A stretch of DNA of 64,000 nt from Candidatus Bathyarchaeota archaeon (GCA_023488905.1 JAMDCQ010000010.1:12-64011); one strand, 5' to 3'; positions 2,759 through 58,300 are shown, numbered from the stretch's first letter. Notes: generated from the sequence alone by a model not told the origin. A program made the numbers and translations.

Positions 2759-2759
2759 T

Positions 2760-4379: not shown

Positions 4380-4381
4380 TT

Positions 4382-7535: not shown

Positions 7536-7540
7536 CCTGT

Positions 7541-10125: not shown

Positions 10126-10615
10126 TTTGTTTTACCTCCTCAACTATTGGGGCAGGCTCAGCCTTTGGAGCTCCAGCCTGTTTTTTCTGCTTAGGCGGGT
10201 TTATGGCGCTGAGTAGCTTAACAACTCCATCGATGATTGCTTCGGGACGGGGGGGGCAACCCGGTATGTAAGCGCTTACGGGAACCACTTTGTCGACTCC
10301 GCCGACGACACTGTAGTTTCCCTCAAAGACGCCGCCGCTACAGGCACATGCACCGATAGCGACAACAAATTTAGGTTGCGGCATCTGGTCATAGACGCGT
10401 TTCAGTCGTTCAGCACATTGGTGCGTGACAGCACCAGTAACCAATAAAACGTCAGCGTGGCGGGGTGAAGGTTCAAGTTTTATGCCGAAACGTTCAACGT
10501 CATATTTTGGTGTGAGCAGAGCAACGATTTCTATATCGCAGCCGTTGCAGGCACCAGAGTTAAAGTGAAGAACCCAAGGAGACTTGACGCGCGCCCACGT
10601 TTTTGTGTCAGTCAC
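10115..10615 (-). CDS. nuoB: NuoB-family subunit of group 4 [NiFe]-hydrogenase small-subunit type
   Basis: 166 aa with GACNGCDIEIV, GACACSGGVF and IPGCPPRPE. The first motif is the hydrogenase CxxC type rather than the CCxxE of canonical NuoB. Confidence 0.88.
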   Translation of the reverse strand: MTDTKTWARVKSPWVLHFNSGACNGCDIEIVALLTPKYDVERFGIKLEPSPRHADVLLVTGAVTHQCAERLKRVYDQMPQPKFVVAIGACACSGGVFEGNYSVVGGVDKVVPVSAYIPGCPPRPEAIIDGVVKLLSAINPPKQKKQAGAPKAEPAPIVEEVKQNAQ

Positions 10616-10944
10616 TGATCTTTACCTCCTTCAAGGAGGACCACTCCCGCCGCGAGGATTATACCTAAATAGAGAATCAGTAGGAGAGGGTTTGTTGCTG
10701 AAATTGCAAACGCTGCAAACGCGAGAACTAGTACTGAAGCGTCAAAGATTACGAAGTAAATTAGGTACTTGTAGAGTGAGACGTTGATTTTGAGACCTTG
10801 GAAGGTGACTTTCTCTCCGCAGGCGTAGGCAGCTTGTTCGTTTTCGCTTATAACGGTTTTTGGAGCAGATCTTTTTCCTATATAGTAGATTGCGAGAGTT
10901 GCGACAAAAATTAAAACGAAAGCGACGAGCGCTTCAACAATCAT
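10612..10944 (-). CDS. nuoA: NuoA-family membrane subunit
   Basis: 110 aa with YACGE and FVIFDAS, which resemble the NuoA YECG and FLIFDVE blocks. First gene of the conserved order. Confidence 0.75.
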   Translation of the reverse strand: MIVEALVAFVLIFVATLAIYYIGKRSAPKTVISENEQAAYACGEKVTFQGLKINVSLYKYLIYFVIFDASVLVLAFAAFAISATNPLLLILYLGIILAAGVVLLEGGKDQ

Positions 10945-11165
10945 GCTGTTTTCTCTCCGTTAAAGGTCGTACCCATCAAGTCTGCCTCAAGGGAAGAGCC
11001 AATTTGGCACTTGTTATAACCGAATGCGTCTAAACGAATGTTATTAAGGGTTTCTGAAAAGCAACTAGACAAATGAACAGTACCGTCGAACATCGCTAAT
11101 GGGTAAATTGATGAAGAAATGCCATGCTTACACATGGTGCCTAGCATACTCTCTCCCATCCGCAT
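10941..11165 (-). CDS. small hypothetical ORF translationally coupled to nuoA
   Basis: 74-aa ORF whose stop overlaps the nuoA ATG (ATGA). No recognisable motif. Confidence 0.25.
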   Translation of the reverse strand: MRMGESMLGTMCKHGISSSIYPLAMFDGTVHLSSCFSETLNNIRLDAFGYNKCQIGSSLEADLMGTTFNGEKTA

Positions 11166-11315
11166 CTGCTAATTGCTCTCCTATACTGCCCCGAGATTGT
11201 TCACTAAAAGCACTACACTTGCATTTAAATTTTGAGAAAACAAACAGTTAAAATTTCATGTTTTCTTCAAAGATTCAACGTGTAAATTAAATCATACTGC
11301 ACAATGTCCAGCGGT

Positions 11316-12419
11316 CTACACCGAGATTTCATCGCTTAACCCATTCTCAGGATATGGGAACAGATGTGACTTCTCTAAGGGGTAAGTGATTGTAACTTCC
11401 TGACCGATACTAATCCAGTCTTCAGCTAAAGAAGGCCGACTAATAACGAAGCGGTCACCGTTCTCAAGCCGAACCTCATATCGGACAACAGTTCCCTCAA
11501 AAGTGGTTTTATCGATTTTACCCTGCAAACCATTCGCTACTCTAACGTGGCCACTCTTCATCTCGCAAGTTTCAGGTCTAATCGCTAAAACAACACGCTC
11601 GTTGAGCTTTATGTTCCTCTCGTTAAATGCCTTAACTTTTAAGCCCTGCCTTAACTCGATTTCCGCAGTATCACCGTCCAACGAGGTAATGTAGCCTTCA
11701 ACAAGGTTGGATTCACCGATAAAGAAAGCTACAAACAGGCTGTTGGGATGCATATAGAGTTCTTTTGGGGTTCCAATCTGGATGATTTTTCCTTTCTTCA
11801 TAACCGCGATGCGATCAGAAATCGACATAGCTTCCGCTTGGTCATGAGTAACGTGAATCGCGGTTAATTTGAGGTCTTTTGCCATTCGGCGAATTTCGTA
11901 TCGGATGTCGTTGCGGACTTTAGCGTCCAGTTGCCCCAGAGGTTCATCCAACAGCAGAGTTTTTGCGCCAGCAGCCAGCGCACGAGCGACCGCTATGCGT
12001 TGCATCATGCCGCCGCTGAGTTCACTGGGGTAAGCATTTAGCCGTTCATCGAGTTTGACGAGTTCAAGCACTTCGTGACCAATCGTTTCAGATTGCTTTG
12101 CGTCATAGTTCTTAACTTTGGGGCCATACAGGACATTGCTCCAAGCGGTCATATGAGGGAACAGGGCGAAAGTTTGGAAGACGAAGCCTATGTCGCGGTC
12201 TTCTGGGGGGTCTTTGTCGACTCTTCGGTCGCCGATGTAGATTTCGCCGCCGTCTGGGTCAATCAGTCCAGCTATAAGTCGGAGAAGAGTGGTTTTGCCG
12301 CAGCCGCTTGGACCCAATAGCGAGAAGTATTCTTGGTCATGGATGGTTAAGCTGACGTGGTCTAAGGCGTAGAGTTTTCCATATTTTTTGACAACGTTTA
12401 CTACTTTTACGTCTGGCAT
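11316..12419 (-). CDS. ABC importer ATP-binding protein (PotA/FbpC/CysA-like, C-terminal TOBE-like domain)
   Basis: Walker A GPSGCGKTT, signature LSGGMMQR and Walker B LLLDEP. The ~120-aa C-terminal extension is typical of importer ATPases. Confidence 0.9.
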   Translation of the reverse strand: MPDVKVVNVVKKYGKLYALDHVSLTIHDQEYFSLLGPSGCGKTTLLRLIAGLIDPDGGEIYIGDRRVDKDPPEDRDIGFVFQTFALFPHMTAWSNVLYGPKVKNYDAKQSETIGHEVLELVKLDERLNAYPSELSGGMMQRIAVARALAAGAKTLLLDEPLGQLDAKVRNDIRYEIRRMAKDLKLTAIHVTHDQAEAMSISDRIAVMKKGKIIQIGTPKELYMHPNSLFVAFFIGESNLVEGYITSLDGDTAEIELRQGLKVKAFNERNIKLNERVVLAIRPETCEMKSGHVRVANGLQGKIDKTTFEGTVVRYEVRLENGDRFVISRPSLAEDWISIGQEVTITYPLEKSHLFPYPENGLSDEISV

Positions 12420-12470
12420 ACCTTGTCTTCTCCTTTTGTTTGGTTTGGGGTGTTTTTATTGGTTATCATA

Positions 12471-14357
12471 CTAAACTTTTCCCTTTCTAGTTAAGAGCCG
12501 CAGGGTCAACAGAACGATGAAGCTGAACAGGATAAGCAATCCGCATGCTAAACCTACATTTAATGCGTTGACGCCTTCGATAGGTGAAATTGTGCCTCTG
12601 ACTGAGTTAACCCAGTTCACTATCAAAACAGGCGCAGTCTGTAACTGCGTGGCTACAGCCAATGTTGCACCCGTTTCGCTTACGCTTCGGGTTAAAACGA
12701 TGATTGCACCTGAAAGGACGGAGTACTTTGTTATTGGCCAAACAATTGTGCGGAAAACAGTTAGGGGTTTTGCACCTAAAGTTTTAGCGGCTTCTTCCAT
12801 GTCCACGCTTATGCGCTCCATCGCGGCGGACATAGAGCGCACGAAGTATGGGTAAGTTATTGCTAAGTGAGCAAAAACCAACAGTACAAACTCGGGAACT
12901 CCGGGAACGTTTGACCAGAAGAATTTTAGCGAGACACCCAGAGCTATCGAGGGCACGATGATTGGGATGTTGATTAATGTGTCAAGGATGGATGAGAACC
13001 ATTTACCGAAGGTTTTGCGTGCAATTAAAATCGCCATAGGTAACCCCAGAGCGATGCCCAACACCGTAACTACAGCGGCTAATCCGTAGGACAATGTGAG
13101 GCTCTGCCAGAAGCTAGCCCAGATGCCTGCACCTGTAAACGCCTCAACTAAGGTGTTTCCTGTCGCGATTGCTTGGAAAGCAGGCAAAGCTACAAACATC
13201 GAAGGGATCAACACTATTACAAAGAAAACTGCTAAAGCAATGCCGTTTCGGGTCCAAGCACCAGTCTTGTAGCTGAGTTTCTTCTCAAATGTAGGCAACC
13301 CGTGACCGAATGGAAGCTTTAGTCTTTGCCCAACTACACGAATTAATACGAAGATGATTAAGGACACAACTATGAGGATTAGACTTGCAAAAACGGTTGC
13401 GCCTTCATAGGTTCCTTGAGTGATAGCACCACTTTTGAACTGATTGCTTACTGTTTGCATGAAAACTGGACCATTGAGAAAAACCCCTGCAGCAACTATG
13501 AAAGTCGCGCCAGTTTCTGAGAGCGACCTTGCAAAAGCTAACGTGAAAGCTGCTATCAGTGAGGGCTTAATAATTGGGAACGTCACGGTCCGAGAAGCGG
13601 TTAGTGGCGGAGCGCCAAGGGTTCTAGAGGCACGTTCATACTCCATCTTGTAGTCGAGCATTGCACCTACGACGACGCGAACCACTACGGGAAATGAAAA
13701 AGTGAAATGCAGAACCATAACAAGAAGCCAACCGGGAGAGATAAACGGTTGCCCAAACAAGTCTGATATGCCGCCGCTTGAACTCCAGAACAAAAGAAGC
13801 GAATAACCCAAAGCCGCGGTAGGCACAACGAAAGGCAAATCCGCCAAAGTATCCAAAATTGTAAGCCACCTTGATTTTCCGCGGGTGATAAGCCACGCGA
13901 GCGGAACCCCTGCCAAGAGGTCAAGAGCCGCAACAACCAAACCGATGACAAACGAGGCTCCGATGGCGCCTAAAGCGGTGTTCATCAACTCGGGGTTGCC
14001 AAGGATACTATCTATGGAGCCAACTTTCGTTAATATGCCAATAATTGGGGGGATGAGGATTAAGGCAAAAAAGATTATGACGGCGGAGAGATAGAGGGTG
14101 TACTTTAGGGGTTTTTTGGAGGATAAACGATTAAGTGTGTTTGAGGCTTTGCTAAGCAAGGTGCCGCTCCTTTGGTTTACGCGCTTTTTTCTCTCAAAAG
14201 AAATCTTAATTGAGGGTTCCACTATATTAGTTGTTACATAGAAAGGGCTTCTTTCTTCATAGATTTGGCTTTTGATATATAGCCTACCTGTACCAAAAAA
14301 GCAGAAAAAGGCAACCAATGTCCAGAGGCGGGATTTGTTCAATCCGTTTGTACCCAC
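12471..14357 (-). CDS. ABC importer permease, fused double MetI-type domain (FbpB/ThiP-like)
   Basis: Two internal permease halves, each with an EAA-like loop (ASRTLGAPPL, AAKTLGAKPL). The true start is uncertain because the N-terminal ~80 aa look non-homologous. Confidence 0.82.
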   Translation of the reverse strand: MGTNGLNKSRLWTLVAFFCFFGTGRLYIKSQIYEERSPFYVTTNIVEPSIKISFERKKRVNQRSGTLLSKASNTLNRLSSKKPLKYTLYLSAVIIFFALILIPPIIGILTKVGSIDSILGNPELMNTALGAIGASFVIGLVVAALDLLAGVPLAWLITRGKSRWLTILDTLADLPFVVPTAALGYSLLLFWSSSGGISDLFGQPFISPGWLLVMVLHFTFSFPVVVRVVVGAMLDYKMEYERASRTLGAPPLTASRTVTFPIIKPSLIAAFTLAFARSLSETGATFIVAAGVFLNGPVFMQTVSNQFKSGAITQGTYEGATVFASLILIVVSLIIFVLIRVVGQRLKLPFGHGLPTFEKKLSYKTGAWTRNGIALAVFFVIVLIPSMFVALPAFQAIATGNTLVEAFTGAGIWASFWQSLTLSYGLAAVVTVLGIALGLPMAILIARKTFGKWFSSILDTLINIPIIVPSIALGVSLKFFWSNVPGVPEFVLLVFAHLAITYPYFVRSMSAAMERISVDMEEAAKTLGAKPLTVFRTIVWPITKYSVLSGAIIVLTRSVSETGATLAVATQLQTAPVLIVNWVNSVRGTISPIEGVNALNVGLACGLLILFSFIVLLTLRLLTRKGKV

Positions 14358-14424
14358 AGAGGCTTAAATACGGTTTTCCAGCTAGGAGGTACCATACTAC
14401 TGCTATTGCAGGTAATGACTGAAA

Positions 14425-14685
14425 ATGGCGGAATCGATAAGAGACATCATTTGTAACGATCTAAGATTCGGCGTAACAACAGTTCGACCAAACCGCGCCA
14501 CAAAAAACTGCCGAATACGGAAACTACTAATCGAGTATTACATAAACGACTTCACAACTATTCTGGTTATCCCCCGCTCATGCAGTCGATGCCCAAAAAT
14601 GGATGATTGCACAGACGAGTTTATCCTCCAAATAATAGAAAAATCAACCCAAAGAAAAGAAGAGGACCACCACTTTGTTCTTTAA
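14425..14685 (+). CDS. hypothetical small protein
   Basis: 86-aa ORF in an otherwise empty gap. No motif support. Confidence 0.2.
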   Translation: MAESIRDIICNDLRFGVTTVRPNRATKNCRIRKLLIEYYINDFTTILVIPRSCSRCPKMDDCTDEFILQIIEKSTQRKEEDHHFVL

Positions 14686-14709
14686 AAGTGGGTAAAGGGC
14701 ATCCGAAGT

Positions 14710-15363
14710 TTAGGCTTGGATGCTGGTCTTTTTAGGCATATAGGTTTCAGTTTCTACTTCAGGCAGTCTGTCCTTTAGGCGGCTCTCCGCAGCGACTTCA
14801 GCTTCCTCAAGAATCTGCAACGCCTCAGCGCTCGCCATAACCGTGTTCACCTGCAAATCTTGACTCTGATTGGTTGAGCCAACGATGTCTGAGAGCAGGT
14901 TGCCGATGTTGCCGAGTTCTTGGCTGGCTTCAGGCATTATGCTGCACATTTCTGAGCGGACATTGTTGAGCAAGCTTTTTGCGGGGCTCAGCACAGCAAC
15001 TACGTCGCCTAACTCGGATACTGTGCTTAGGCGCATCGAAACGCTTTGCAGGGCAAGCGAAGCATGCGAGAGCATCTTTTCAACCTTACGTATCTCAGAG
15101 AGCTCAGTCGCGAGAATGTTTGCTCGGGCTTGGTCTCTTTGCGCCATGGCTCTAATGATTCGGTTAAAGATTTCGGCGTCCCGATTCTGGAAACGCACAA
15201 CTGCGGCGTCAAGCGATTTTGTTTGTGTATCAAGCCGCTGTGTAACCATGGTTATTTGTTCTTTTAGGTTGGTTGATGGTTGCCCAACGTTTTTTATTTT
15301 TGAAACCAAAGATTCGTCGGCTGGTTCTTTGGGTTTCCATCTGTCTGTGAAGCGTCTAACCAA
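14710..15363 (-). CDS. ESCRT-III/Snf7 (CdvB)-like coiled-coil protein
   Basis: 217 aa, all-helical, with a basic N-terminal half and acidic C-terminal half and a heptad-like pattern typical of the Snf7 family. TTG start. No cdvA or Vps4 gene adjacent. Confidence 0.45.
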   Translation of the reverse strand: MVRRFTDRWKPKEPADESLVSKIKNVGQPSTNLKEQITMVTQRLDTQTKSLDAAVVRFQNRDAEIFNRIIRAMAQRDQARANILATELSEIRKVEKMLSHASLALQSVSMRLSTVSELGDVVAVLSPAKSLLNNVRSEMCSIMPEASQELGNIGNLLSDIVGSTNQSQDLQVNTVMASAEALQILEEAEVAAESRLKDRLPEVETETYMPKKTSIQA

Positions 15364-15593
15364 ACATGTTTCCCCAAACCCAACTTCTGATTCAGTGATA
15401 AAAGACTGTTCGCAAAAATAAGTTAAAACCCAACCCTGCGGGTATATGAGTTTTTATATTTATCTATAAAGAGGCAACATCTCTGCTCCATGACTTTGCA
15501 CCGAAACCCATTAGCATCGATGGTAAATTGTATTTAAACTAAAACAAAAAACAGCCGCTAAAAAGGCAAAAAGTGGTCTAAAGCTATGTGCCG

Positions 15594-15791
15594 CTACTCT
15601 TTGCTGAACCACTTGAGGTACCACTTAAAGTTCTCGCAAGTATCATTCGACGGGCAAGCCAAGCAGGGGAATTCTTTGCCCGCTTCGTCAATTAAGGCGG
15701 CTACTTTCTTTTTTGCTTCTTCATTTAGCCTCAAGAACTCGAGGCGCTTCTTAAATTCGCCATTCAACACTAAAACCCTAAACAGTAACAA
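15594..15791 (-). CDS. small hypothetical Cys-containing protein
   Basis: 65-aa ORF directly downstream of the 15824-16327 gene on the same strand. Confidence 0.3.
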   Translation of the reverse strand: MLLFRVLVLNGEFKKRLEFLRLNEEAKKKVAALIDEAGKEFPCLACPSNDTCENFKWYLKWFSKE

Positions 15792-15823
15792 GCAAGCGGC
15801 GAATAAAAAACTAACGCGTCGGG

Positions 15824-16327
15824 TTAAACGTGCATCATAGCTACAACTGTTGTATGAGCTTCCTCTATACCTGAAACTTTCTCGTGAATTGACTCAACTG
15901 CCCTCGTTAGCTCCGCCTGATCTTTTGCAGATAGCGGCACAATCAAGTCGCATGGCCCAAAAACCACATCAGCAGAAATCACCTGAGGAAACTTGAGCAG
16001 CTCTTTTTGAACTCTTTCGGCTTCTTGGGGTTCAACGTTAAGAAACATAAACGCTGAAGGCGGCCTTGAGTAGGCGGGTCCTTCAACTGCAACGATGTAG
16101 GTCATGGTTTTGGATAGGCATTTTTTGTCTCCGCCTATCATGCGGATGGGTGTGGACCACTTTTTAACGAATTCGTTTAGGTTTTTTAGTTTATCTAACT
16201 TTATGAATATGTCTATTGGTCCATAGAGTAGGGATATGTTTCCTTTGGGGATGTCCATGGCTAAAAGTTTCTCGATAAGCTCGTTGTAGTGCCCTGCCCT
16301 GCAGGTTAAACCCATATACGCTCTCAA
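15824..16327 (-). CDS. hypothetical protein with two Lrp/AsnC-type ligand-binding (RAM-like) repeats
   Basis: Two ~75-aa repeats, each with a GP(I/C)D(I/L)(F/I) block (LLYGPIDIFIKL, VVFGPCDLIVPL), as in AsnC_trans_reg domains. No HTH seen. Confidence 0.4.
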   Translation of the reverse strand: MRAYMGLTCRAGHYNELIEKLLAMDIPKGNISLLYGPIDIFIKLDKLKNLNEFVKKWSTPIRMIGGDKKCLSKTMTYIVAVEGPAYSRPPSAFMFLNVEPQEAERVQKELLKFPQVISADVVFGPCDLIVPLSAKDQAELTRAVESIHEKVSGIEEAHTTVVAMMHV

Positions 16328-16415
16328 AAAGACACCAATAAAATAACACTACTTAGACGTAAAAAACTATCGCAAATAAAGGGGACAGGGGCAAAAGCCC
16401 AAGCCTAAAAACTCA

Positions 16416-16793
16416 TTAAACGGTGATTTTCTTTGTGGTTATGATGCCTATTTCTGGTTCTGGGGTGGCGACGGTAATTTTTCTGCAGATAAGGTTGAGG
16501 GATTCTTCGGTAAAGTTTAGCATGCTTTGTCCATCAGTGGTTAGGCTGTAGACTTTGCGTGGACGCTCAAAACTCATATTCCAAGTGCTCTGCACATAGC
16601 CTTTCTTTTCCAGCTGGCCCAGTAGCGGGTACACTGTGCTGGGGCCGAAGTAGACGCCAAAGTTCTTGCGGATCTTAGTGATAACTTGGTAGCCGTGCAT
16701 GGGTTCACTACTGAGATACTGCAGTATGATCATGTCTAGGAGGCCTTTCATGAGTTTGGTTGAGACCTCTTTTTGTGAGCTTGCTTTGAACAT
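16416..16793 (-). CDS. PadR-family transcriptional regulator
   Basis: ILQYLSSEPMHGYQVITKI ... STVYPLLGQLEKKGYV is the PadR winged-helix signature. Confidence 0.85.
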   Translation of the reverse strand: MFKASSQKEVSTKLMKGLLDMIILQYLSSEPMHGYQVITKIRKNFGVYFGPSTVYPLLGQLEKKGYVQSTWNMSFERPRKVYSLTTDGQSMLNFTEESLNLICRKITVATPEPEIGIITTKKITV

Positions 16794-16878: not shown

Positions 16879-17204
16879 CTTGAGTACAGAGTATCAATAC
16901 ACAACCATATAAACCCTAACACATAACCCAAGCATACCAAAACACACCCAAACGCAACAACAAACATGAAACTCTATGAAAATAAACACCAAACCATATC
17001 AAAAACGCAAAAAACGCCTCAAAAACAAACTGTACAACACATCAACAGAAAAATCACCGCCTCCCTTACCGACAATAAACAAAGACAAAAGCGCATGGAT
17101 GAAACAAACAAACCAGTACATTAGGAACATTTACAATGAGACAACTTTGCTAACTTATAGCGATTAACCAATGGGGTAGATAAGGCATAACGGGATCATT
17201 AAAG

Positions 17205-17278
17205 TGCGGTAACCGGGATTTGAACCCGGGTCCTAGACTTGGCAAGCCTATGTACTAACCAAGCTGTACTATTACCGC
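17205..17278 (-). tRNA. tRNA-Gly (anticodon GCC)
   Basis: Hand-folded cloverleaf. Acceptor GCGGUAA/UUACCGC, D stem GUAC/GUAC, anticodon stem UAGGC/GUCUA with loop UUGCCAA, and T arm CCGGG-UUCAAAU-CCCGG. Discriminator A, no encoded CCA. Confidence 0.85.
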
Positions 17279-17634: not shown

Positions 17635-17712
17635 GCGGTCGTAGTCTAGTTTGGTCTAGGACATCAGCCTGCCACGCTGACGACCCGTGTTCAAATCCCG
17701 GCGACCGCACCA
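17635..17712 (+). tRNA. tRNA-Gly (anticodon GCC), second divergent copy, CCA encoded
   Basis: Acceptor GCGGUCG/CGACCGC, anticodon stem UCAGC/GCUGA with loop CUGCCAC, and T arm CCGUG-UUCAAAU-CCCGG with one U-C mismatch. Discriminator A followed by CCA. Confidence 0.8.
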
Positions 17713-17774: not shown

Positions 17775-18224
17775 TCAGCCCTTGTGGAATACTGAGGTAA
17801 ACATCATCCGCTCCACCTTGCCGTCTTTGCCTGTTACCCAGACCTCGTCAACCAACTCTACCGCCCTATCGATGTGTCGCTCATCCAAGCCAAAGGGAAA
17901 AATAACCACCAGGTAACTGCCCTCAGGTAGGCTGCGGCGTAACTGCGCTACCCGCCAGCGTAGCCACCCTAAATGGGGGCTATTTATGCACTCAACGCCA
18001 ACCATACCCTTCTCATCCCGCGCCACAACGTCAATGTGAAACGTTTTTCCGCCAAGATCAGACGATACCTCAAACCCCATCTCACGATAACCCCTATCAC
18101 ACCACAACTTTAGCGCCGCCGCAACCTTGAGGCTCTCGATAACAGCTGAACCCTTACGCGCATGCCCCTTGTAATTTTCCCTGAGCTCTTCAGGCAACTT
18201 GTTGGCGGCATCATTAGCTATCAT
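17775..18224 (-). CDS. hypothetical protein, possible PD-(D/E)xK (restriction-endonuclease-fold) nuclease
   Basis: 149 aa. The pattern E(VIESL)...GFEV...HIDVVARDEKGMVGVEC resembles Hjc/Mrr-type cores, though the usual Lys after E-x is missing. GGAGG lies 9 nt before the ATG. Overlaps the upstream RHH gene by 11 nt. Confidence 0.4.
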   Translation of the reverse strand: MIANDAANKLPEELRENYKGHARKGSAVIESLKVAAALKLWCDRGYREMGFEVSSDLGGKTFHIDVVARDEKGMVGVECINSPHLGWLRWRVAQLRRSLPEGSYLVVIFPFGLDERHIDRAVELVDEVWVTGKDGKVERMMFTSVFHKG

Positions 18225-18405
18225 TTGTAATAGCCTCCACTGGACCGACGTTAAGCTGTCGAGCCTTCTCGTTAACTAAAACCCTCACGAGCTCAGCATC
18301 GCTCTCAACGCCATAGTACTTTTTCAGCGCTTCAACTTTATTGAGCGATTCGCCTTCAAATTCCACTTGAACCTGAATTTTCCCGTTTGCAGCCATCCAA
18401 CTCAC
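18214..18405 (-). CDS. small ribbon-helix-helix (CopG/antitoxin-like) protein
   Basis: 63 aa. KIQVQVEFEGESLNKVEALKKYYGVESDAELVRVLV fits a beta-strand/helix/helix RHH layout. Coupled to the 17775-18224 gene. Confidence 0.45.
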   Translation of the reverse strand: MSWMAANGKIQVQVEFEGESLNKVEALKKYYGVESDAELVRVLVNEKARQLNVGPVEAITNDS

Positions 18406-18568: not shown

Positions 18569-18742
18569 ATGGTGAACGATACAAACAACGAAGCATCACA
18601 AGTGCGCGTAGTTTTCCAGGGCGAACTCAAGAAACGGTTTGAAGCCGTAAAAAGACACTATTGTATAGAAAACAACGCTGAAGTGGTCCGATTACTCGTC
18701 TCGCTAAAATATGAGGACCTAAAGAAAGAAGGACGAATTTAA
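18569..18742 (+). CDS. small RHH-like protein, paralogue of 18214-18405 (57 aa, below the ORF-track cutoff)
   Basis: My translation is MVNDTNNEASQVRVVFQGELKKRFEAVKRHYCIENNAEVVRLLVSLKYEDLKKEGRI. It aligns without gaps to the 63-aa protein (QV.V.F.GE....EA.K..Y..E..AE.VR.LV). Confidence 0.4.
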   Translation: MVNDTNNEASQVRVVFQGELKKRFEAVKRHYCIENNAEVVRLLVSLKYEDLKKEGRI

Positions 18743-18777
18743 ACAAACCACAACTACAATACAGCCAGTTAATAGAG

Positions 18778-20277
18778 CTAAATGTAATATTTGAGTCTGT
18801 TTTGTAGGTACTTATCCGAATCTGGTGGGGCATTTCTCAATATCTCTCCTACTCTTTTGGCAAAGCCTATTGTTATTGGAGCTTTCGTGCAAAATTTTGC
18901 ATTGTTCCAATTTAGTTTCGTTAACGCTAATGTTTCTTCACAAATATCGTCTATTGGTGAATTACCCAAATGCTGGAGAATTTCAAGTGGAGAAGGAACC
19001 CTTGGTCCAGGATACATGCCAAGGTATGGTATAAATCCGTTTGTATACAGGAGAACGCTTTCGTCAGGCAATCTAATCATTGTCCCCCGAATAGGTGGCT
19101 GTACGCCCCATCTTACGAGCTTAAGGTTTCTAGTGCCAAAAGCTACCAAATCAAGTGTTATCCCTTCGCTTAAACCTGCTTTAAAACCTTCAATTTCATA
19201 GCTTTCGTATTTCGAGGTTTTATGTACGACAACTCTTCTAGGGAGTTGGTCGTTTTTAGAACTCTTGTACTGCGTAATCGCTTGTGTAATAATAGACGAG
19301 GCTTCTTCCTTTGTTACATGAAGGGTATAATTCTCATCTGTAATTGCTTTGCCGCCTTTGAAAACATACCCTTCGGAATCCAATGAGAATACTTGAGACA
19401 GCGCTGTTTTAACTGAAGCTGGGTCAGACCTATCCCTAAAAAATGAAACCCCTACATAACAAGTATCTGCCATAAGTTTCCTAACCCGCCAAGGAAGTCT
19501 ATTTGATTTATAAAACAAAGCAACAATCAAATTCCAATAAGTGGTCGCATCATCCTCTCGATTAGGTACTTCTGAATTGTATGGACTTGTTGTGTGAGGT
19601 CTCAAAATCTGGATGGGAATTTTATACTTCATGCATATTATCTTTATCATACTGCGTAAGTCTGTGGGTCTGAATGCTTCTAGCGCAGGAGAGGGCATCC
19701 CAAAGAATGTATCAAGCGGTCGGTGAAGACGCCTTTCTTTTTCGATAAACTTTTCTAAACTACTTTTTCTTCTCATTCCTCTATAGCCAATAGCGCCCTC
19801 TATGCAGTAATAATCTACAATTTTAGGATAAGCTAACAATAGTAACTCTGGCGAGGGGTCTTTATCAAGTAATGCCTTGATTTTTTCTTCAACGATAAGG
19901 CTAAAAAGTTCGATTCTATTTGACAGCGAAACACTCTTTTCCATTTGTGTTCTTAAGGATTCACCGTCTATTTGAGCAGCCCCTTTTACGTTTAGACGGA
20001 TTCTCAATTTGCCGATCCCGGGGAAGGCTATGTGCAGAAAAGTTCTATCTTTGCCATACGATGTTACGTTCAATTTCTCAATCAAATTTCTTGTTGCTTC
20101 TATTGATGAGGCATCCCCAATGATCCCAATGTTGATGTCGTAGTTTGCCGATTTATCGCCAAGCGGCCCTACAAGTGTCCACCCCATCTTTGGATCGGGA
20201 ACTAGTATTCCTTCCCCGACTTCAATTTGCGGTTCTTCGAAATACCTTGCAACAGGCTGGAATCTGGATAATTTCAA
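18778..20277 (-). CDS. short prokaryotic Argonaute (MID-PIWI only, catalytically inactive)
   Basis: 499 aa. MID pocket pattern is R208-x3-K212-x10-Q223...K257. PIWI blocks are TCYVGVSFF, RRVVVHKTS and PITIGFAKRVG, with a KYYI C-terminus. The catalytic D/D/H positions read S/T/K. TTG start lies 7 nt after GGAGG. Confidence 0.85.
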   Translation of the reverse strand: MKLSRFQPVARYFEEPQIEVGEGILVPDPKMGWTLVGPLGDKSANYDINIGIIGDASSIEATRNLIEKLNVTSYGKDRTFLHIAFPGIGKLRIRLNVKGAAQIDGESLRTQMEKSVSLSNRIELFSLIVEEKIKALLDKDPSPELLLLAYPKIVDYYCIEGAIGYRGMRRKSSLEKFIEKERRLHRPLDTFFGMPSPALEAFRPTDLRSMIKIICMKYKIPIQILRPHTTSPYNSEVPNREDDATTYWNLIVALFYKSNRLPWRVRKLMADTCYVGVSFFRDRSDPASVKTALSQVFSLDSEGYVFKGGKAITDENYTLHVTKEEASSIITQAITQYKSSKNDQLPRRVVVHKTSKYESYEIEGFKAGLSEGITLDLVAFGTRNLKLVRWGVQPPIRGTMIRLPDESVLLYTNGFIPYLGMYPGPRVPSPLEILQHLGNSPIDDICEETLALTKLNWNNAKFCTKAPITIGFAKRVGEILRNAPPDSDKYLQNRLKYYI

Positions 20278-20279
20278 GG

Positions 20280-21779
20280 CTAGTCCTCCAAAGATGTCTC
20301 ATCGAGTGGGTTAATGTCTCCAGTTTCGTCATTGGTTACAACATAGTCTAAAGGTTCAGATTTCAGAGAATCAAGAAAATCTGCACCAGTATGTTGATCC
20401 TCGGCAATTCCAAAGCTCGTTTTAGAAGTTAATGACAGAATTGAAACAATTACTTTGCCAGGTTCTTGGCCTAAATGCACTTCTTCCTTGTTCCCTGCGA
20501 GAATATGAAGCCATAGTTTCATGTCGTACAAGTAGTTGTTATTATGATAGTAAACATTTTTCTTTGTGCTAATTCGTACATTCAATCGATTATCGAGAGG
20601 TTGCAAGCCATCCCTTGTAAGGACACGTATTGGTTCAATGATTAGGTATACTCCATTTCCCAGAATTGTAAATCTTAAACGACCGCCAAAATGTTCGCAA
20701 TATGTCAAACGACCGGTATTTTTGTTGATTTTTAAGTTAACGAGTTCACGAGTGCTAGTGGCCTTATATGGCGTCCATGTTACTGATGGTACAGACCCCC
20801 CAAAATATCTCATGTAATAACGGTCCCTATCGGCGTCATAAAAGAATCTTTTACTCTTACAAAGCTCTTTGAGATTAAAATTCAACAATTTGACTAGTTT
20901 TTGATTGAGTTTGGGGTCATCAAGCCATTCTTGCGTTGAGTGCTCGGCTCCTGAAGAGCTAACACAAAGGCTTAATGGGTTTAATTCATCAAATGGACAA
21001 AAAGAGTATATTAGCTCATCCTCTAATAGGAACGCGGGAGTTTTCACTTCACCTTTTAAGTTTTCTTTAATTTTGGCATATATGTCATTTGCAAATCGAT
21101 ATTTTGTATTTGCAGAAAAGATTTTGTCGGGCAGCTCCTTAACGGGGTATAGATTTGACCATAAAGTCTCTTCCAAGCAATCTGGCTTCATTTTATGGTT
21201 TAGGACATTCAATGCATCTATGGGGATTTCGGATGTGTCTCTTTCTTCAGATGTGCGTTTTAAAAGAGCCCAAAAAAGATGCCAAAATTCCTCACCTGTA
21301 GCCGCAACGGTTGCCGAATTTCTCCTAGTGTAAACAGTCCCTTGTCTGAAAGCGACTTTATCGATGCCGTGTTCATCCTTATAAGCGCCTTCTGATTTCG
21401 GGATTACTAGGGAACCGATCGAACCGTGGATAAAGAGAATGGGGAACTTTCGATTTTTCCCTGCGACTAAAGAAATGTGCTCGAAGTAAGTGATTTTTAT
21501 GTGTCCCGTTGTCCACTTTGAAAATTTTTCAACCCAAGTCTGTGAATCTTTATGGAAATTTTCATCTATCCCAATTGGCTTGAAGGTTCCATCTTGAACG
21601 CCAAATATAATGTACCCGCCGCCCGAGTTCGCCATGCCGTAGACATCTTTTGCTATCTCCAACCAGTCCTTTGTGGTATCGTTAAATTTTTCCTTGTAAT
21701 CAAGGTCGGAAGACTCAATTTTTCTATTAATGAGTTCTTGAGCCAACTCAGGGCTGATTTCCATTAACTCCCCTCTCAA
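20280..21779 (-). CDS. pAgo-associated protein: N-terminal Schlafen/AlbA_2-like domain fused to a putative APAZ region
   Basis: ESSDLDYKEKF...AKDVYGMANSGGGYIIFGVQDG...GTVYTRRNS matches the AlbA_2 pattern (E..lEfK...AfaNt.GG.l.iGV.d.G...yiR.gs). Its stop is 2 nt before the pAgo start. The APAZ assignment comes only from position and length. The ATG at 21764, preceded by GAGG, may be the real start. Confidence 0.6.
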   Translation of the reverse strand: MRGELMEISPELAQELINRKIESSDLDYKEKFNDTTKDWLEIAKDVYGMANSGGGYIIFGVQDGTFKPIGIDENFHKDSQTWVEKFSKWTTGHIKITYFEHISLVAGKNRKFPILFIHGSIGSLVIPKSEGAYKDEHGIDKVAFRQGTVYTRRNSATVAATGEEFWHLFWALLKRTSEERDTSEIPIDALNVLNHKMKPDCLEETLWSNLYPVKELPDKIFSANTKYRFANDIYAKIKENLKGEVKTPAFLLEDELIYSFCPFDELNPLSLCVSSSGAEHSTQEWLDDPKLNQKLVKLLNFNLKELCKSKRFFYDADRDRYYMRYFGGSVPSVTWTPYKATSTRELVNLKINKNTGRLTYCEHFGGRLRFTILGNGVYLIIEPIRVLTRDGLQPLDNRLNVRISTKKNVYYHNNNYLYDMKLWLHILAGNKEEVHLGQEPGKVIVSILSLTSKTSFGIAEDQHTGADFLDSLKSEPLDYVVTNDETGDINPLDETSLED

Positions 21780-21919
21780 CTCATTTCAGGGTCATCACAA
21801 GCTTAAGAGTTATTGCACACTATTATTATATTTTCAACGAATTTTTTTAATACTTTAACACTTTACTGTCTATCCTTAGTTATAGAAGCATCCCTTGAGA
21901 ACGCAGGTAAGGCAAAAAG

Positions 21920-22376: not shown

Positions 22377-22516
22377 CTATGTATTCTTGTGAAGAAAATC
22401 GCATAGCCCACACCGAAACAGAAGATGAAAACGGTTGCAAACCCAAAACACAGCCGCCCCCAACTGCTGTCGTGTGGTGTGCCGTAAACCAAAACACCCA
22501 CATAAAGAACGCAGAC
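22377..22516. repeat. left copy of ~140-bp inverted repeat (83-bp perfect core 22426-22508)
   Basis: Direct comparison with the reverse complement of 25281-25420. The core is identical and identity decays outward. Confidence 0.85.
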
Positions 22517-22534
22517 ACAAAAAAGAAAAGAAGG

Positions 22535-23314
22535 CTAGTTTACGTCGTTGGTTTCGATTTTCTTTACCATCTCAGCTACAATCTTGGTGAATGGGTGGTC
22601 AGGTTTATCCTGTGCGAAGATAAAGTTGCCTTCGGCGCGTAGAACCTCGCAGAAACATGGTACCATGCCAAGCATGGGCACTTTGTAGTCCGCCTTTATT
22701 TTTGTCTGCATCTCAGTCTTTCGGGATGATAAAGACGGGTCCAGCACCTTGTTTAGGACCAAGCCTGTTTTCTTCTCGAAGAGGTTGTAGAGTTCGGCTA
22801 GCATGCGTTTTGTGCCGTCTACGTCTGAGCGGTCGCCTGTTGTTGCAACCACCACGAAATCTGCTGCTACGATGGCGTTGATTGAGGAGTATTGGAGTCC
22901 TGGGCTTGTGTCGAAGACTAGGTAGTCGAATTTTTGGTCTCTTAGAAGGCTCTCTCTGAGCGCTAAAATTCTGCCTAACGCTCGCATTTCCCATTTACGG
23001 TCTTTGGAGGACATGTCGCGGATGGCTTCCGTAGACGGGTTAGCGAGGCAAGCGTAGAATTTTCCACTGCCGGGTATTCTTGGGCTCATGTCGACTATGG
23101 CTTTGTCGATTTCGCAGCTGTTGTTTAAATAATCGTTGAACCAAGTTTCGACGTTTTGGGCTTTTAGTATGGCAAATAAGCTTGGAGCTCTGAAGTCTAA
23201 GTCGAAGAGGCAAACTTTTTTTCCGTTCTTAGCAAGCGTGGCGGCAATGTTGACGGCCATTGAGGTTTTTCCAGTTCCACCCTTATAGGAGTGTACAGCG
23301 ATTATTTTGCTCAT
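22535..23314 (-). CDS. ParA/MinD-family P-loop ATPase
   Basis: Deviant Walker A HSYKGGTGKTS. LVFDTSPG and the overall MinD/ParA layout fit. 259 aa. Confidence 0.9.
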   Translation of the reverse strand: MSKIIAVHSYKGGTGKTSMAVNIAATLAKNGKKVCLFDLDFRAPSLFAILKAQNVETWFNDYLNNSCEIDKAIVDMSPRIPGSGKFYACLANPSTEAIRDMSSKDRKWEMRALGRILALRESLLRDQKFDYLVFDTSPGLQYSSINAIVAADFVVVATTGDRSDVDGTKRMLAELYNLFEKKTGLVLNKVLDPSLSSRKTEMQTKIKADYKVPMLGMVPCFCEVLRAEGNFIFAQDKPDHPFTKIVAEMVKKIETNDVN

Positions 23315-23318
23315 AATC

Positions 23319-23759
23319 TCAACTCTGTGCTTCCCTGTCTATGTAGAAGTAAGCTTTGCGGCCTTTGCGCTCCTTTTTAATGTAACCCATGATAACTAAT
23401 TGATTAAGATAAGCACTCTCAACTGCTCTAGCTCGTTGCGTCTGCTCCGCAACTTCCTCGGCTGTCGCTTTTGAGCACCGGCAAATCGTCATAGCGGTCT
23501 TTCGAAGGTGATCAGGCATAGAGAGAAGCGTCATGACATCCAACGACGCGTCGGGTATGGCTGGTACGTTATGTGGGTTAGGGTTTGCTGGACTGTTTTT
23601 TTGGATCTCGATCATGACTTCCATTTTCTCGTTAAGTTTCTCGAGGCTCTCCTCTATTTTTTCGAGTATGTTTAAGGGTTTTTTGCTGGATAGGTCGTTT
23701 CTAATCACTTTTATCCCCGAGTTGTTTTTCATGTGTACAGTTGTTGGATAACTAAACAC
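23319..23759 (-). CDS. winged-helix protein co-transcribed with ParA (candidate partition adaptor or centromere binder)
   Basis: 146 aa. The C-terminal part, ATAEEVAEQTQRARAVESAYLNQLVIMGYIKKERKGRKAYFYI, is MarR/TrmB-like wHTH. Its stop is 4 nt before the ParA start. Confidence 0.5.
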   Translation of the reverse strand: MFSYPTTVHMKNNSGIKVIRNDLSSKKPLNILEKIEESLEKLNEKMEVMIEIQKNSPANPNPHNVPAIPDASLDVMTLLSMPDHLRKTAMTICRCSKATAEEVAEQTQRARAVESAYLNQLVIMGYIKKERKGRKAYFYIDREAQS

Positions 23760-23898: not shown

Positions 23899-24192
23899 TT
23901 AGTAGGGAACAGAAACCTGATTCCTTGCTTCCTCTACTATTGGCAGAACTTGTTTTAGTTCCTTGAAGTACTTCAAAACGGTAATGCCACGTTGGGTGAC
24001 AGCGAAAACTACACGCCGTTTACCAATCGTGCGCTCTTCCACTAGACCCTGTTTCATCAGAAAGTCTAGGTATTCTTTGAGGACACTGCAGTTAACGTTT
24101 GCCTTGTACATGACGTGGGTTAGCTTTAGGGGGCCACGATGTGCAAGTACCGTAAGGATATCGACGTACATTTCTAGTTTAGATCGACGCAC
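23899..24192 (-). CDS. small winged-helix DNA-binding protein
   Basis: 97 aa. ILTVLAHRGPLKLTHVMYKANVNCSVLKEYLDFLMKQGLVEE is a common archaeal wHTH family pattern. Confidence 0.65.
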   Translation of the reverse strand: MRRSKLEMYVDILTVLAHRGPLKLTHVMYKANVNCSVLKEYLDFLMKQGLVEERTIGKRRVVFAVTQRGITVLKYFKELKQVLPIVEEARNQVSVPY

Positions 24193-25167: not shown

Positions 25168-25280
25168 CCTGCTTGCACGACCGATTGCAAATGCCAGAGT
25201 CACACCATAAACGTAGGCGTTGAAGCTGCAGGTGAGAAATAAACGCCGAAGGTGGGGGTGAATTCGATCAGTGCAGCTTT

Positions 25281-25420
25281 GTCTGCGCTCTTTATGTGGG
25301 TGTTTTGGTTTACGGCACACCACACGACAGCAGTTGGGGGCGGCTGTGTTTTGGGTTTGCAACCGTTTTCAACGTCTGCTTCGGTGTGGGCTGTGCAATT
25401 TCCACCACACGCCATACATG
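25281..25420. repeat. right copy of ~140-bp inverted repeat (perfect core 25289-25371)
   Basis: Reverse complement matches 22377-22516. Confidence 0.85.
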
Positions 25421-58293: not shown

Positions 58294-58300
58294 TAAAAAA

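Follow-up and report, generated by a model that had tools for sequence, protein, structure and literature searches.

A two-gene Schlafen-APAZ and short Argonaute cassette in an archaeal genome and its predicted mode of action

Short prokaryotic Argonaute (pAgo) systems form the largest Argonaute group in prokaryotes. The effectors characterised so far act through NAD+ depletion (SIR2, TIR) or indiscriminate degradation of DNA and RNA (DREN, HNH), and target-induced oligomerisation is the activation mode of all characterised short pAgo systems. To our knowledge, pAgo defence has received almost no experimental study in Bathyarchaeia, Nitrososphaeria, Thorarchaeota and Nanohaloarchaea.

"Schlafen/Alba" has figured in lists of APAZ-appended domains since at least 2023, and Schlafen (SLFN)-APAZ partners of short pAgos are included in two phylogenies of 2026. 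In 2026, a fused long-B SLFN-pAgo, further bacterial Schlafens and Cash, a CRISPR-linked protein, were each shown to be triggered tRNases. In RzAgo, the SLFN-pAgo of Runella zeae, tRNA is cleaved upon RNA-guided DNA recognition, and the Schlafen domains must pair, mimicking the bilobed mammalian fold (bioRxiv 10.64898/2026.05.29.728809). Bacterial Slfn and Cash (Schlafen-Csx15) are switched on by oligomerisation or filaments, and their cleavage of tRNA leads to abortive infection (PMC13056530; PMC13462974). The triggered-tRNase concept is thus already anticipated by the 2026 literature. The novelty that the initial annotation of the present locus attached to a Schlafen-type effector was overstated, as SLFN-APAZ partners of short pAgos had already appeared in several papers. 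A literature search found no functional study of the two-gene, ATPase-less SLFN-APAZ/short pAgo form, and the cassette described here is a new archaeal member of this catalogued, functionally uncharacterised subtype.

Organisation and conservation of the cassette

The window, i.e., the whole stretch of DNA analysed (64,000 nt), comes from a Bathyarchaeia-type archaeon. Two minus-strand ORFs of 499 aa each were verified at the coordinates first assigned to them (Table 1). Pfam, PADLOC, solved-structure searches and AlphaFold/Foldseek were concordant in identifying the cassette as a Schlafen(AlbA_2)-APAZ gene followed by a short pAgo gene.

Table 1. Features of the SLFN-APAZ/short pAgo cassette, in window coordinates
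Feature	Coordinates	Strand	Basis or remark
T-rich stretch	18721..18750	-	30-55 nt past the pAgo stop; read from the sequence
Short pAgo gene (MID + catalytically dead PIWI)	18778..20277	-	499 aa, TTG start; PADLOC, PDB matches
PIWI* domain, residues ~266-499, C-terminal YYI	18781..19482	-	S278, T354, K474 at slicer positions
MID 5′-phosphate pocket R208, K212, Q223, K257	19507..19656	-	Family conservation
Gene junction	20275..20289	-	GGAGG 20289-20285, TAG stop 20282-20280, TTG start 20277-20275
SLFN-APAZ gene	20280..21779	-	ORF from TTG 21779; likely start ATG 21764, 494 aa
Acidic C-terminal tail, residues 451-499	20283..20429	-	Conserved; last codons carry GGAGG before the pAgo start
APAZ domain, residues ~207-450	20430..21161	-	phmmer, PADLOC, Foldseek
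Schlafen/AlbA_2 single-lobe nuclease domain (predicted), residues ~10-180	21240..21752	-	AF2 model, Foldseek
Predicted catalytic motif E22-x4-D27-x-K29	21693..21716	-	Conservation in homologues
Promoter/leader region	21781..21865	-	Extent from end of similarity to closest relative; promoter role inferred

The junction reads GGAGG-ACTAGCC-TTG, with the 2-nt gap and the GGAGG 7 nt 5′ of the pAgo TTG that had been described; this GGAGG-stop-2 nt-TTG arrangement upholds the translational coupling proposed for the upstream partner. Like junctions, with gaps of -8 to +7 nt and GGAGG or GGAAGG, were found in eight related loci, and the position homologous to the pAgo TTG is ATG in the relatives. The upstream protein probably starts at the ATG at 21764, because its homologues all begin at residue 6; GAGGGGAG lies before this codon.

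The two genes were adjacent in 12/12 related loci, down to 28%/38% identity, so that the expected co-occurrence in relatives was borne out. The APAZ gene was the only gene specifically associated with the pAgo across these loci, and no third conserved gene was present in the related loci examined. Homologues were collected as about 70 clusters for SLFN-APAZ (45-88% identity, all aligned from residue 6) and about 80 clusters for the pAgo (42-73% identity); the longest contig of 38 of the 70 SLFN-APAZ clusters had the same size as that of some pAgo cluster. Identities of the two partners correlated with r = 0.98, indicating co-evolution, and single-chain SLFN-APAZ-pAgo fusions occur (P0220 and P0251, Thorarchaeota). 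Moreover, solved heterodimers contain homologues of both proteins, the pAgo and SLFN-APAZ, as their chains A and B. Together, the fusions, the correlation and this homology suggest that the two proteins form a heterodimer.

Named relatives of the cassette were all archaeal. Labelled members of the family belonged to Bathyarchaeia, Nitrososphaeria, Thorarchaeota and Nanohaloarchaea, and among members with a taxonomic label the family appears largely archaeal.

The cassette is self-contained. With the closest relative (L008/L009, 80% identity), similarity at the nucleotide level covers 18778-21865 and ends there, and the flanks vary in every locus, with type I R-M genes, transposases, integrase and RadC/Fic among them. 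The "AT-rich island" mentioned in the initial annotation proved to be only a modest dip in GC (0.39-0.42 vs 0.44-0.50 in the flanks). On reading the sequence, an AT-rich TATA-like stretch was seen upstream of the SLFN-APAZ gene (approximately 21821-21834). The T-rich stretch past the pAgo gene is possibly an archaeal oligo-T terminator; beyond it lie approximately 370 nt of non-coding DNA and then the next minus-strand gene.

In 2 of the 12 related loci one partner is frameshifted (the pAgo in L002, with SLFN-APAZ split in L010), which reflects either occasional loss of the system or mis-assembly of these sequences. Such damage, the non-ATG (TTG) start of the pAgo and the rarity of the family (3 loci in 185,579 species, in species-representative genomes) could suggest a remnant, decaying or domesticated, that no longer serves defence in the host genome. 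This is very improbable for the present cassette, since both ORFs are intact and full length, the key motifs are all kept, the TTG stands at the relatives' ATG position with a conserved GGAGG upstream, and dN/dS against the closest relative was 0.03-0.04 for both genes, indicating purifying selection.

Domains of the two proteins

The downstream protein matched the PADLOC pAgo_I model with E = 1.6e-113 (residues 11-499 against model positions 4-455 of 455). In sequence searches against short pAgos in the PDB, E values were approximately 1e-53 for SPARDA and SPARHA, 1e-40 for SPARTA and 2e-24 for SPARSA, with matches spanning residues 12-483, confirming the short pAgo call. Long pAgos gave E values of approximately 1e-5 only, the best matches being class I short pAgos. 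These full-length PADLOC and PDB matches show a protein of MID and PIWI only, without N or PAZ domain.

The 5′-end binding pocket first placed by eye is conserved, R208 being present in 66/68 family members and K212, Q223 and K257 in 68/68, and the same residues are kept in 38 outgroup short pAgos. Three positions of the slicer tetrad, those of the catalytic D, D and H/D, were mapped via motif context and alignment end-points to the long pAgos 6qzk_A and 1yvu_A. S278, T354 and K474 fell at, or not more than 2 residues from, the positions that we take to be the catalytic Asp residues of these proteins. Across the 68 family members they are occupied by S/A/T, T/S and R/K/Q, respectively, and never by an acidic residue; thus the predicted degeneracy of the slicer site stood, and at the three mapped positions there is no DEDX tetrad.

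In the upstream protein, profile searches for AlbA_2 and APAZ similarity found both (Pfam, PADLOC, phmmer). PADLOC APAZ models ("PNTD1-PNTD2") matched residues ~200-445 with E of approximately 1e-27. The assignment of the C-terminal part as APAZ, initially putative, was confirmed by the HNH-APAZ protein of SPARHA (9om4_A) both in sequence (phmmer, E = 2.8e-16, residues 199-462) and in fold, this chain being the best Foldseek match (E = 1.2e-13, TM 0.74 normalised to target), followed by the APAZ chains of SPARDA, SPARTA and SPARSA. No TIR, SIR2, DREN (DUF4365) or HNH domain was found in the protein; PADLOC partner-model matches were confined to residues ~190-460, and those to SIR2-containing models involved the APAZ part only.

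The C-terminal tail carries 13 D/E vs 2 K/R, with a family mean net charge of -12. It is conserved at G457, D461, L469, D470, N490 and P491, and its model pLDDT is low. By analogy, it is predicted to plug the guide/target channel, as the acidic C-tail of the SPARTA APAZ protein is autoinhibitory. Since the acidic tail has been reported as SPARTA-specific and is absent in SPARSA, we put forward this role in the SLFN-APAZ family as a hypothesis.

The N-terminal Schlafen/AlbA_2 domain recognised initially was confirmed by Pfam SLFN_AlbA_2 (PF04326), which matched residues 22-159 with 53.8 bits (cut-off 25.3; E = 3.5e-14) over profile positions 1-116 of 118. PF04326 was the sole Pfam match of the protein at E ≤ 1, and no GHKL ATPase domain was found. 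The AF2 model of residues 1-190 (pLDDT 92.4) has a single lobe of about 170 aa, and all 31 of its 31 Foldseek matches in the PDB (E < 2e-3) have the Schlafen/AlbA_2 fold, including SLFN11/13/5/14/12, the SAMD9 tRNase domain and DIP2311. The TM values, normalised to query, were 0.34-0.52, which is modest with respect to eukaryotic SLFNs and a point against the mechanism proposed below.

The domain contains the motif E22-SSDL-D27-Y-K29, followed by YGMAN at 47-51 (a SAFAN-like box), GGG at 53-55 and G60-V-Q-D63. Among 46 close homologues, K29, N51, G53-55 and G60 do not vary, and E22 and D27 reach at least 90% conservation. When 39 sequences of the wider family were compared, E, D/E, K and N51 each occurred in 39/39 and the Gly core was invariant. 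Position 63 is E in 19 of these sequences, D in 11, K in 6, N in 2 and Q in 1; in several members the acid is found one residue earlier, at position 62. This looser conservation of the third acidic residue in the wider family counts against the proposed nuclease site. The E(x)4(D/E)xK and SAFAN motifs mark active SLFN nucleases (bioRxiv 10.64898/2026.05.29.728809; PMC13056530), and the nuclease motif proved indispensable in human SLFN11, bacterial Slfn, Cash and RzAgo. Its conservation here suggests a metal-dependent endoribonuclease that acts on tRNA or rRNA.

Against a nuclease, prokaryotic AlbA_2 was annotated as DNA-binding by Ryazansky 2018 (PMC6299218), and NCBI homologues are named "putative DNA binding domain-containing protein" or "helix-turn-helix domain-containing protein". 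The domain could accordingly be a non-catalytic nucleic-acid binder (for guide acquisition, as a DNA tether or as a regulator) in a system acting by binding/occlusion or through an unlinked host effector. We regard this as quite unlikely: the metal-binding motif E-x4-(D/E)-x-K is kept by 39/39 diverse members, strong purifying selection would be superfluous for simple binding, an enzymatic effector occupies the same position in every other short pAgo clade, and the loci hold no third conserved gene.

Proposed mechanism and significance

The best explanation, which we consider fairly probable, is a guide-RNA/target-DNA-activated and oligomerisation-dependent tRNase that causes abortive infection, with the acidic C-tail as the gate. 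The short pAgo would be bound via the APAZ domain, which would complete the Argonaute channel with an N/L1/L2-like half, and a 5′-phosphorylated small guide would be anchored in the MID pocket, most likely RNA by analogy with SPARTA, SPARDA and SPARHA; the interface and the substrate are also proposed by analogy. In the resting state, the tail would probably lie in the basic guide/target channel, and the single-lobe Schlafen domains would be separate and inactive. Once the guide pairs with complementary DNA of an invader, the tail would be expelled and pAgo-pAgo interfaces bared, through which heterodimers may join as tetramers or filaments. This assembly would pair the Schlafen domains and rebuild the two-lobed Schlafen cleft, and the putative metal-dependent site E22/D27/K29/D63 would then cut host tRNA, possibly rRNA, halting translation and leading to dormancy or death. 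In RzAgo and Cash, too, Schlafen domains of a single lobe have to dimerise or form filaments. Because the cassette has no GHKL ATPase, unlike fused long-B SLFN-pAgo, assembly should be driven by pAgo/APAZ and be ATP-free. The guide-dependent tRNA/rRNA cleavage first hypothesised for this locus has a strong precedent in that fused protein (bioRxiv 10.64898/2026.05.29.728809).

The complex may also sense targets as proposed while its Schlafen domain is a broader collateral nuclease acting on rRNA, mRNA, ssDNA or invader nucleic acid, with an outcome like that of SPARDA/SPARHA. Among solved structures, both proteins are indeed closest to the DNase-type S2B systems SPARHA and SPARDA, Cash also cuts 16S rRNA in vitro (PMC13462974), and SLFN5, SLFN11 and SAMD9 also bind DNA according to structure titles. 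However, in all prokaryotic Schlafen effectors characterised to date (bacterial Slfn, Cash, RzAgo) tRNA is the main substrate, and the catalytic motif is of the RNase-family type; this broader activity therefore seems unlikely.

If the tRNase reading holds, a Schlafen effector would bring translation shut-off by tRNA cleavage into the short-pAgo repertoire and join two immune families, Argonaute and Schlafen, both conserved from prokaryotes to humans. Without the assembling ATPase of SLFN-pAgo, the cassette offers a natural setting in which to ask if Argonaute and APAZ suffice as a scaffold for building the active Schlafen cleft. A guide-programmable, target-activated tRNase could also serve nucleic-acid detection. 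More tentatively, the cassette might represent a fifth, mostly archaeal, mechanistic class of short-pAgo immunity, in which the pAgo/APAZ scaffold replaces the GHKL ATPase and an ATP-independent tRNase is assembled by target-induced oligomerisation, the acidic C-tail holding it off as long as no target DNA is bound. Such a system would have the first short-pAgo effector to act on translation rather than on NAD+ or DNA, in a lineage reaching Asgard archaea as single-chain SLFN-APAZ-pAgo fusions.

Comparison with known systems

The cassette has the features of a short pAgo system: MID and PIWI only, no acidic slicer residues, the 5′ pocket and an APAZ gene in the operon. Membership of SPARTA, SPARSA, SPARDA or SPARHA was ruled out, as the N-terminal domain of the partner is Schlafen and not TIR, SIR2, DREN or HNH. 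The SLFN-pAgo class (Kuzmenko et al. 2026) was also ruled out, since a stop codon and a frame change separate the two ORFs, residues 200-450 are APAZ with no GHKL ATPase ("Schlatpase" supradomain), and the pAgo core is short class I, not long-B.

SPARHA (AcaSPARHA, PDB 9om4; PMC12738770) provides the best solved match of both proteins, its pAgo (E = 1.1e-53) being tied with the SPARDA pAgo 9jsb_A. It is likewise a two-gene operon with effector-APAZ upstream of an S2-type MID-PIWI* pAgo with conserved 5′-P pocket; its effector is a filament-forming HNH DNase that degrades DNA, whereas the N-terminal ~180 aa here are Schlafen/AlbA_2. SPARTA (TIR-APAZ, clade S2A) has the heterodimer architecture predicted here, and an acidic C-tail is present on the APAZ protein in both. 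In metagenomes, the pAgos closest to the present one outside the SLFN group (34-35% identity) carry TIR-APAZ partners; the TIR NADase of SPARTA depletes NAD+, in contrast to the RNase against translation predicted here. SPARDA (DREN/DUF4365-APAZ) has the same APAZ fold, and its target-induced filament activation is a likely model for effector assembly here; the SPARDA effector differs in being a DREN nuclease of the PD-(D/E)xK type, which degrades DNA and RNA collaterally. In the og_40 proteins of Ryazansky et al. 2018 (PMC6299218), Schlafen is likewise found on an APAZ protein beside a short pAgo, but these are SIR2_1 + Schlafen + APAZ, whereas the present protein is Schlafen + APAZ only.

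RzAgo (bioRxiv 10.64898/2026.05.29.728809) likewise combines an Argonaute sensor with a single-lobe Schlafen domain having E(x)4(D/E)xK and SAFAN; the preprint describes the Schlafen domains of SLFN-APAZ proteins as no more than distant relatives of its Clade II. In RzAgo, a long-B pAgo core forms part of one extra-long polypeptide, in which a GHKL ATPase drives ATP-dependent tetramerisation; here there are two proteins, a short pAgo and an APAZ adaptor, without an ATPase domain. Bacterial Slfn (PMC13056530) and Cash (PMC13462974) share the modular conserved Schlafen nuclease lobe. Their sensors are a phage-protein-binding Ig domain and a cA4-binding Csx15 domain, respectively, in place of which a guide-loaded Argonaute/APAZ scaffold is proposed here.

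The short Argonaute and its partner protein

The downstream of the two genes encodes a protein (pAgo) that matched the PADLOC model pAgo_I from end to end (E=1.6e-113). Its best solved relatives were the short pAgos of SPARDA (9jsb, 9qbl, and 9qbp) and SPARHA (9om4_B), with E-values of about 1e-53, followed by those of SPARTA (1e-40 to 6e-35) and SPARSA (2e-24), whereas long pAgos gave only about 1e-5; these four are short pAgo systems with DREN, HNH, TIR, and SIR2 effectors, respectively, on APAZ. NCBIfam had no model for either protein of the pair, the sole match being one of 25 bits to a long-Ago equivalog with a cut-off of 700 bits. Judged from its sequence, this protein belongs to the short pAgos.

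Residue conservation was read from 68 family members aligned with 38 outgroup short pAgos, and the MID pocket was conserved in both sets. In the family, R208 was present in 66 of the 68 members and K212, Q223, and K257 in all 68. Three positions that the initial annotation had equated with slicer residues and read as non-acidic proved to be S/A/T, T/S, and R/K/Q across the 68 members, and were never acidic. These positions, which do not include the glutamate finger, were mapped from alignment end-points, local motifs, and the residue numbers of the catalytic sites. The end-points to the long pAgos 6qzk and 1yvu put them at most 2 residues from the catalytic aspartates.

In the upstream protein (SLFN-APAZ), Pfam SLFN_AlbA_2 matched residues 22–159 (53.8 bits; gathering cut-off 25.3), PADLOC models of APAZ-bearing pAgo partners matched only residues 190–460 or thereabouts (E about 1e-27), and phmmer aligned the SPARHA HNH-APAZ chain 9om4_A with residues 199–462 (2.8e-16). 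The AlphaFold2 model (pLDDT 81) displayed confident domains at residues 10–180 and 207–450 and a low-confidence tail at 451–499, and its top Foldseek matches were the APAZ chains of SPARHA (TM 0.74, normalised to target), SPARDA, SPARTA, and SPARSA. Residues 1–190, modelled separately, reached a pLDDT of 92.4; all 31 significant PDB matches of this part had the Schlafen/AlbA_2 fold, namely human SLFN11, SLFN13, SLFN5, SLFN14, and SLFN12, the SAMD9 tRNase domain, and DIP2311. As modelled, SLFN-APAZ is a protein of two domains and a tail. Pfam, PADLOC, phmmer, and Foldseek support the initial annotation of a short pAgo with a Schlafen/AlbA_2-APAZ partner.

With about 170 aa, the Schlafen domain forms a single lobe, and Pfam detected no ATPase or other further domain in SLFN-APAZ. 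The 49-residue tail, borne by a net-basic APAZ domain, contains 13 D/E against 2 K/R; in the family, its mean net charge is -12 and conserved positions are present. NCBI names for SLFN-APAZ homologues include "ATP-binding protein", "helix-turn-helix domain-containing protein", and "putative DNA binding domain-containing protein"; neither an ATPase nor an HTH domain behind these names was detectable in the window protein, and the first name derives from an older name of PF04326.

In recent papers, the marks of an active Schlafen nuclease are the motif E(x)4(D/E)xK, a SAFAN box, and a third acidic residue within a Gly/hydrophobic core (bioRxiv 10.64898/2026.05.29.728809; PMC13056530). The corresponding residues of SLFN-APAZ, E22-SSDL-D27-Y-K29, YGMAN47-51, GGG53-55, and G60-V-Q-D63, were at least 90% conserved or invariant among 46 close homologues. 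In 39 sequences of the wider family, E22, D/E27, K29, N51, and G60 were each found in 39/39, and the third acidic residue was placed less strictly, at position 62 or 63. The nuclease motif is, as far as sequence can tell, intact; beside this pattern, a role of the Schlafen domain as a non-catalytic binding module appears unlikely.

Linkage of the two genes

The junction between the genes (Table) agreed with the initial annotation in its GGAGG, stop, 2-nt gap, and TTG start. Relatives carry ATG at the codon homologous to this TTG, behind the same GGAGG, which supports the pAgo start. For the upstream gene, the ORF annotated initially stands but its start probably does not: all alignments of homologues begin at residue 6 and GAGGGGAG precedes the ATG at 21764, so this ATG is probably the true start, giving a product of 494 aa.

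Table. Features of the pAgo module and its surroundings in the window
Feature	Position	Strand	Remarks
tRNA-Gly(GCC) gene 1	17204-17278	(-)	like gene 2, lies past the small ORFs that follow pAgo
tRNA-Gly(GCC) gene 2	17635-17712	(+)	3' CCA encoded
Two small overlapping ORFs	17775-18405	(-)	63 and 149 aa, overlapping by 11 nt; ~370 nt downstream of pAgo
pAgo ORF	18778-20277	(-)	499 aa
Gene junction	TAG stop 20282-20280; TTG start 20277	(-)	2-nt gap; GGAGG 7 nt 5' of start; sequence reads ...TTGGAGGACTAGCCTTGAAA
SLFN-APAZ ORF	20280-21779	(-)	499 aa
Inverted repeat	22388-22517 and 25280-25409		130 nt; 93% complementary; brackets the 2.8-kb cassette
ParA-like ATPase	22535-23314		in 2.8-kb cassette; PHROG ParA-like, E=4e-29
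TrmB-like wHTH protein	23319-23759		in 2.8-kb cassette
HTH_45 protein	23899-24192		in 2.8-kb cassette

Homologue searches returned about 70 clusters for SLFN-APAZ (45–88% identity) and about 80 for pAgo (42–73%); for at least 38 of the 70 SLFN-APAZ clusters, the longest contig was equal in size to that of a pAgo cluster. Since a scan of species-representative genomes gave only 3 loci (L001–L003), the wider evidence was drawn from nine metagenomic or MAG contigs (L004–L012). Co-occurrence of the genes in relatives was borne out: SLFN-APAZ lay directly 5' of pAgo in every retrieved locus, the two being spaced by -8 to +7 nt, the most distant syntenic locus (L012) being at 28%/38% identity. Outgroup pAgos at 34–35% identity were partnered by TIR-APAZ. 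Identities of the two partners were correlated (r=0.98, ten loci), and dN/dS against the closest relative was 0.029 for SLFN-APAZ and 0.040 for pAgo; the DNA common with this relative was 18778–21865 only, namely both genes and about 100 nt upstream.

Broken genes were observed at two loci. In L002, a Bathyarchaeia genome, pAgo (9499–10988) is interrupted by two frameshifts and spread over three reading frames, and in L010 (3513–4999) SLFN-APAZ is split into ORFs of 68 aa and 432 aa. They are either assembly errors or pseudogenes, and the latter would be in keeping with a toxic effector being costly. The broken copies favour, and the dN/dS values argue against, a reading of the cassette in the window as a decaying remnant, which is very improbable.

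When 1.84 billion representatives were searched with a profile, the SLFN-APAZ family proved to be broader, and among the 150 top-ranking representatives about 38 covered both domains. Three of these representatives were single-chain SLFN-APAZ-pAgo (MID-PIWI) fusions (P0220, 913 aa; P0251, 981 aa; P0219, 744 aa), and the two full-length ones came from Candidatus Thorarchaeota (Asgard) MAGs (MCF2138277.1 and NHI83436.1). They parallel the SIR2-APAZ-pAgo fusions known from clade S1A; no mention of SLFN-APAZ-MID-PIWI fusions was found in the literature examined. With natural fusions and co-evolution as surrogates for heterodimer formation, the co-occurrence, synteny, co-evolution, selection, and fusions together lend support to a putative module of two physically interacting proteins.

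Host and genomic surroundings

Among the window's proteins, those of Complex I and ABC transporters fell into clusters of at least 90% identity with proteins of a "Candidatus Bathyarchaeota archaeon" MAG, and this MAG was collinear with 1318–16583 at 85.6% nucleotide identity, its contig stopping there. Two independent assemblies of a close relative (GCA_026014685.1 and a Logan contig; 85.6% nucleotide identity) end at about 16400–16583, just short of the tRNA-Gly/pAgo/ParA stretch, which may point to a region that varies between strains and disrupts assembly. The module's named relatives were all archaeal (Nitrosotenuis, other Nitrososphaerota, Bathyarchaeia, Thermoproteota, Thorarchaeota, and Nanohaloarchaea). 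Viral contigs yielded no SLFN-APAZ relative, and a virus-borne origin is therefore not supported.

GC content was 0.39–0.42 over 18–22 kb versus 0.44–0.50 in the flanks. The "AT-rich island" described initially corresponds to this modest GC dip, and an island around the pAgo module is plausible. The two tRNA-Gly(GCC) genes are divergent in orientation, about 360 nt apart, and only about 78% alike. When either end of the adjacent tRNA-Gly gene was searched for att-like duplicates, only the gene itself was recovered, with no partial copy elsewhere in the window, and a discrete tRNA-integrated element is not supported.

The only lead for the two small ORFs downstream of pAgo was a weak REase_MTES_1575 match (E=0.018), with nothing further in Pfam, PADLOC, NCBIfam, or PHROG. 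They may form a small cassette of the toxin-antitoxin-like or nuclease type; as a third component they were ruled out, being missing from all related pAgo loci. The 2.8-kb cassette beside the module holds two further small ORFs without assignment, and its inverted-repeat arms matched no Rfam family; it may be plasmid-derived or mobile. At 58496–59398, a 42-nt unit occurs six times, mostly with a spacing of 120 nt, within an ORF of 431 aa (58271–59566); it is an ordinary protein repeat and looks like a beta-propeller (PQQ-like) motif of the type "SSPAV..G.VYIGS".

Flanking genes differed at every locus and included type I R-M genes, transposases, an integrase, and RadC/Fic. Type I R-M genes neighbour the module in L004 and L010, the latter additionally with a DUF4365 gene; RadC plus Fic are found in L010 and L011; and L013, a SPARTA-like locus, adjoins AbiE and PIN/Phd toxin-antitoxin pairs. 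Related pAgo modules at these four loci occupy defence or mobile contexts.

Proposed mechanism and relation to known systems

In all characterised short pAgo systems, an APAZ protein and pAgo form a heterodimer whose 5'-P guide RNA pairs with invader DNA, and target-induced oligomerisation turns on the effector, through tetramers in SPARTA and SPARSA and through filaments in SPARDA and SPARHA. The prokaryotic Schlafen effectors that have been characterised are all tRNases, and all become active on assembly. Upon sensing a phage protein, bacterial Slfn oligomerises (PMC13056530), and Cash (Schlafen-Csx15) forms filaments induced by cA4 (PMC13462974). In RzAgo, the fused long-B SLFN-pAgo of Runella zeae, two single-lobe Schlafen domains must pair, mimicking the bilobed mammalian fold, and tRNA cleavage follows once target DNA has been recognised through the RNA guide and ATP has bound (bioRxiv 10.64898/2026.05.29.728809).

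Given a short-pAgo scaffold, a single-lobe Schlafen domain, and no ATPase, oligomerisation driven by pAgo/APAZ is the most economical model. The two proteins would form a complex carrying a 5'-P guide RNA; target binding would lead to oligomerisation and thereby pair the single-lobe Schlafen domains, and the paired domains would cleave tRNA, causing translation arrest and abortive infection. The acidic C-tail may be autoinhibitory, because it resembles the acidic C-tail of SPARTA, which plugs the guide/target channel. By analogy, we consider such a target-triggered, pAgo/APAZ-assembled Schlafen tRNase somewhat probable, and the RzAgo precedent likewise favours the guide-dependent translation shut-off put forward initially as a working hypothesis. 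Next to the tRNase activity of the characterised Schlafen effectors, a broader collateral nuclease keeps a small but appreciable likelihood.

The architecture was already on record. An APAZ orthogroup carrying SIR2 plus Schlafen was reported by Ryazansky 2018 (PMC6299218), a 2023 SPARTA preprint named "Schlafen/Alba" among domains appended to APAZ, the 2025 SPARHA paper (PMC12738770) noted "additional uncharacterized effectors" in clade S2B, and the 2026 Cash paper (PMC13462974) linked a Schlafen cluster with short pAgos. The novelty seen initially was overstated for the architecture; on the function of the exact two-gene form, a literature search among papers open without subscription found no study. 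The locus is thus an archaeal instance of a subtype that has been catalogued but not characterised. That an Argonaute can control a Schlafen tRNase was shown in 2026 for a related architecture, which reduces the novelty here.

The locus displays the testable defining features of both a short pAgo system and the Schlafen/AlbA_2 nuclease family. Membership of SLFN-pAgo, SPARTA, SPARSA, SPARDA, and SPARHA was ruled out because their defining domains are absent: unlike SLFN-pAgo, the window system is not a single chain and has neither a GHKL domain nor a long-B core, and it differs from the other four in having no TIR, SIR2, DREN, or HNH effector.
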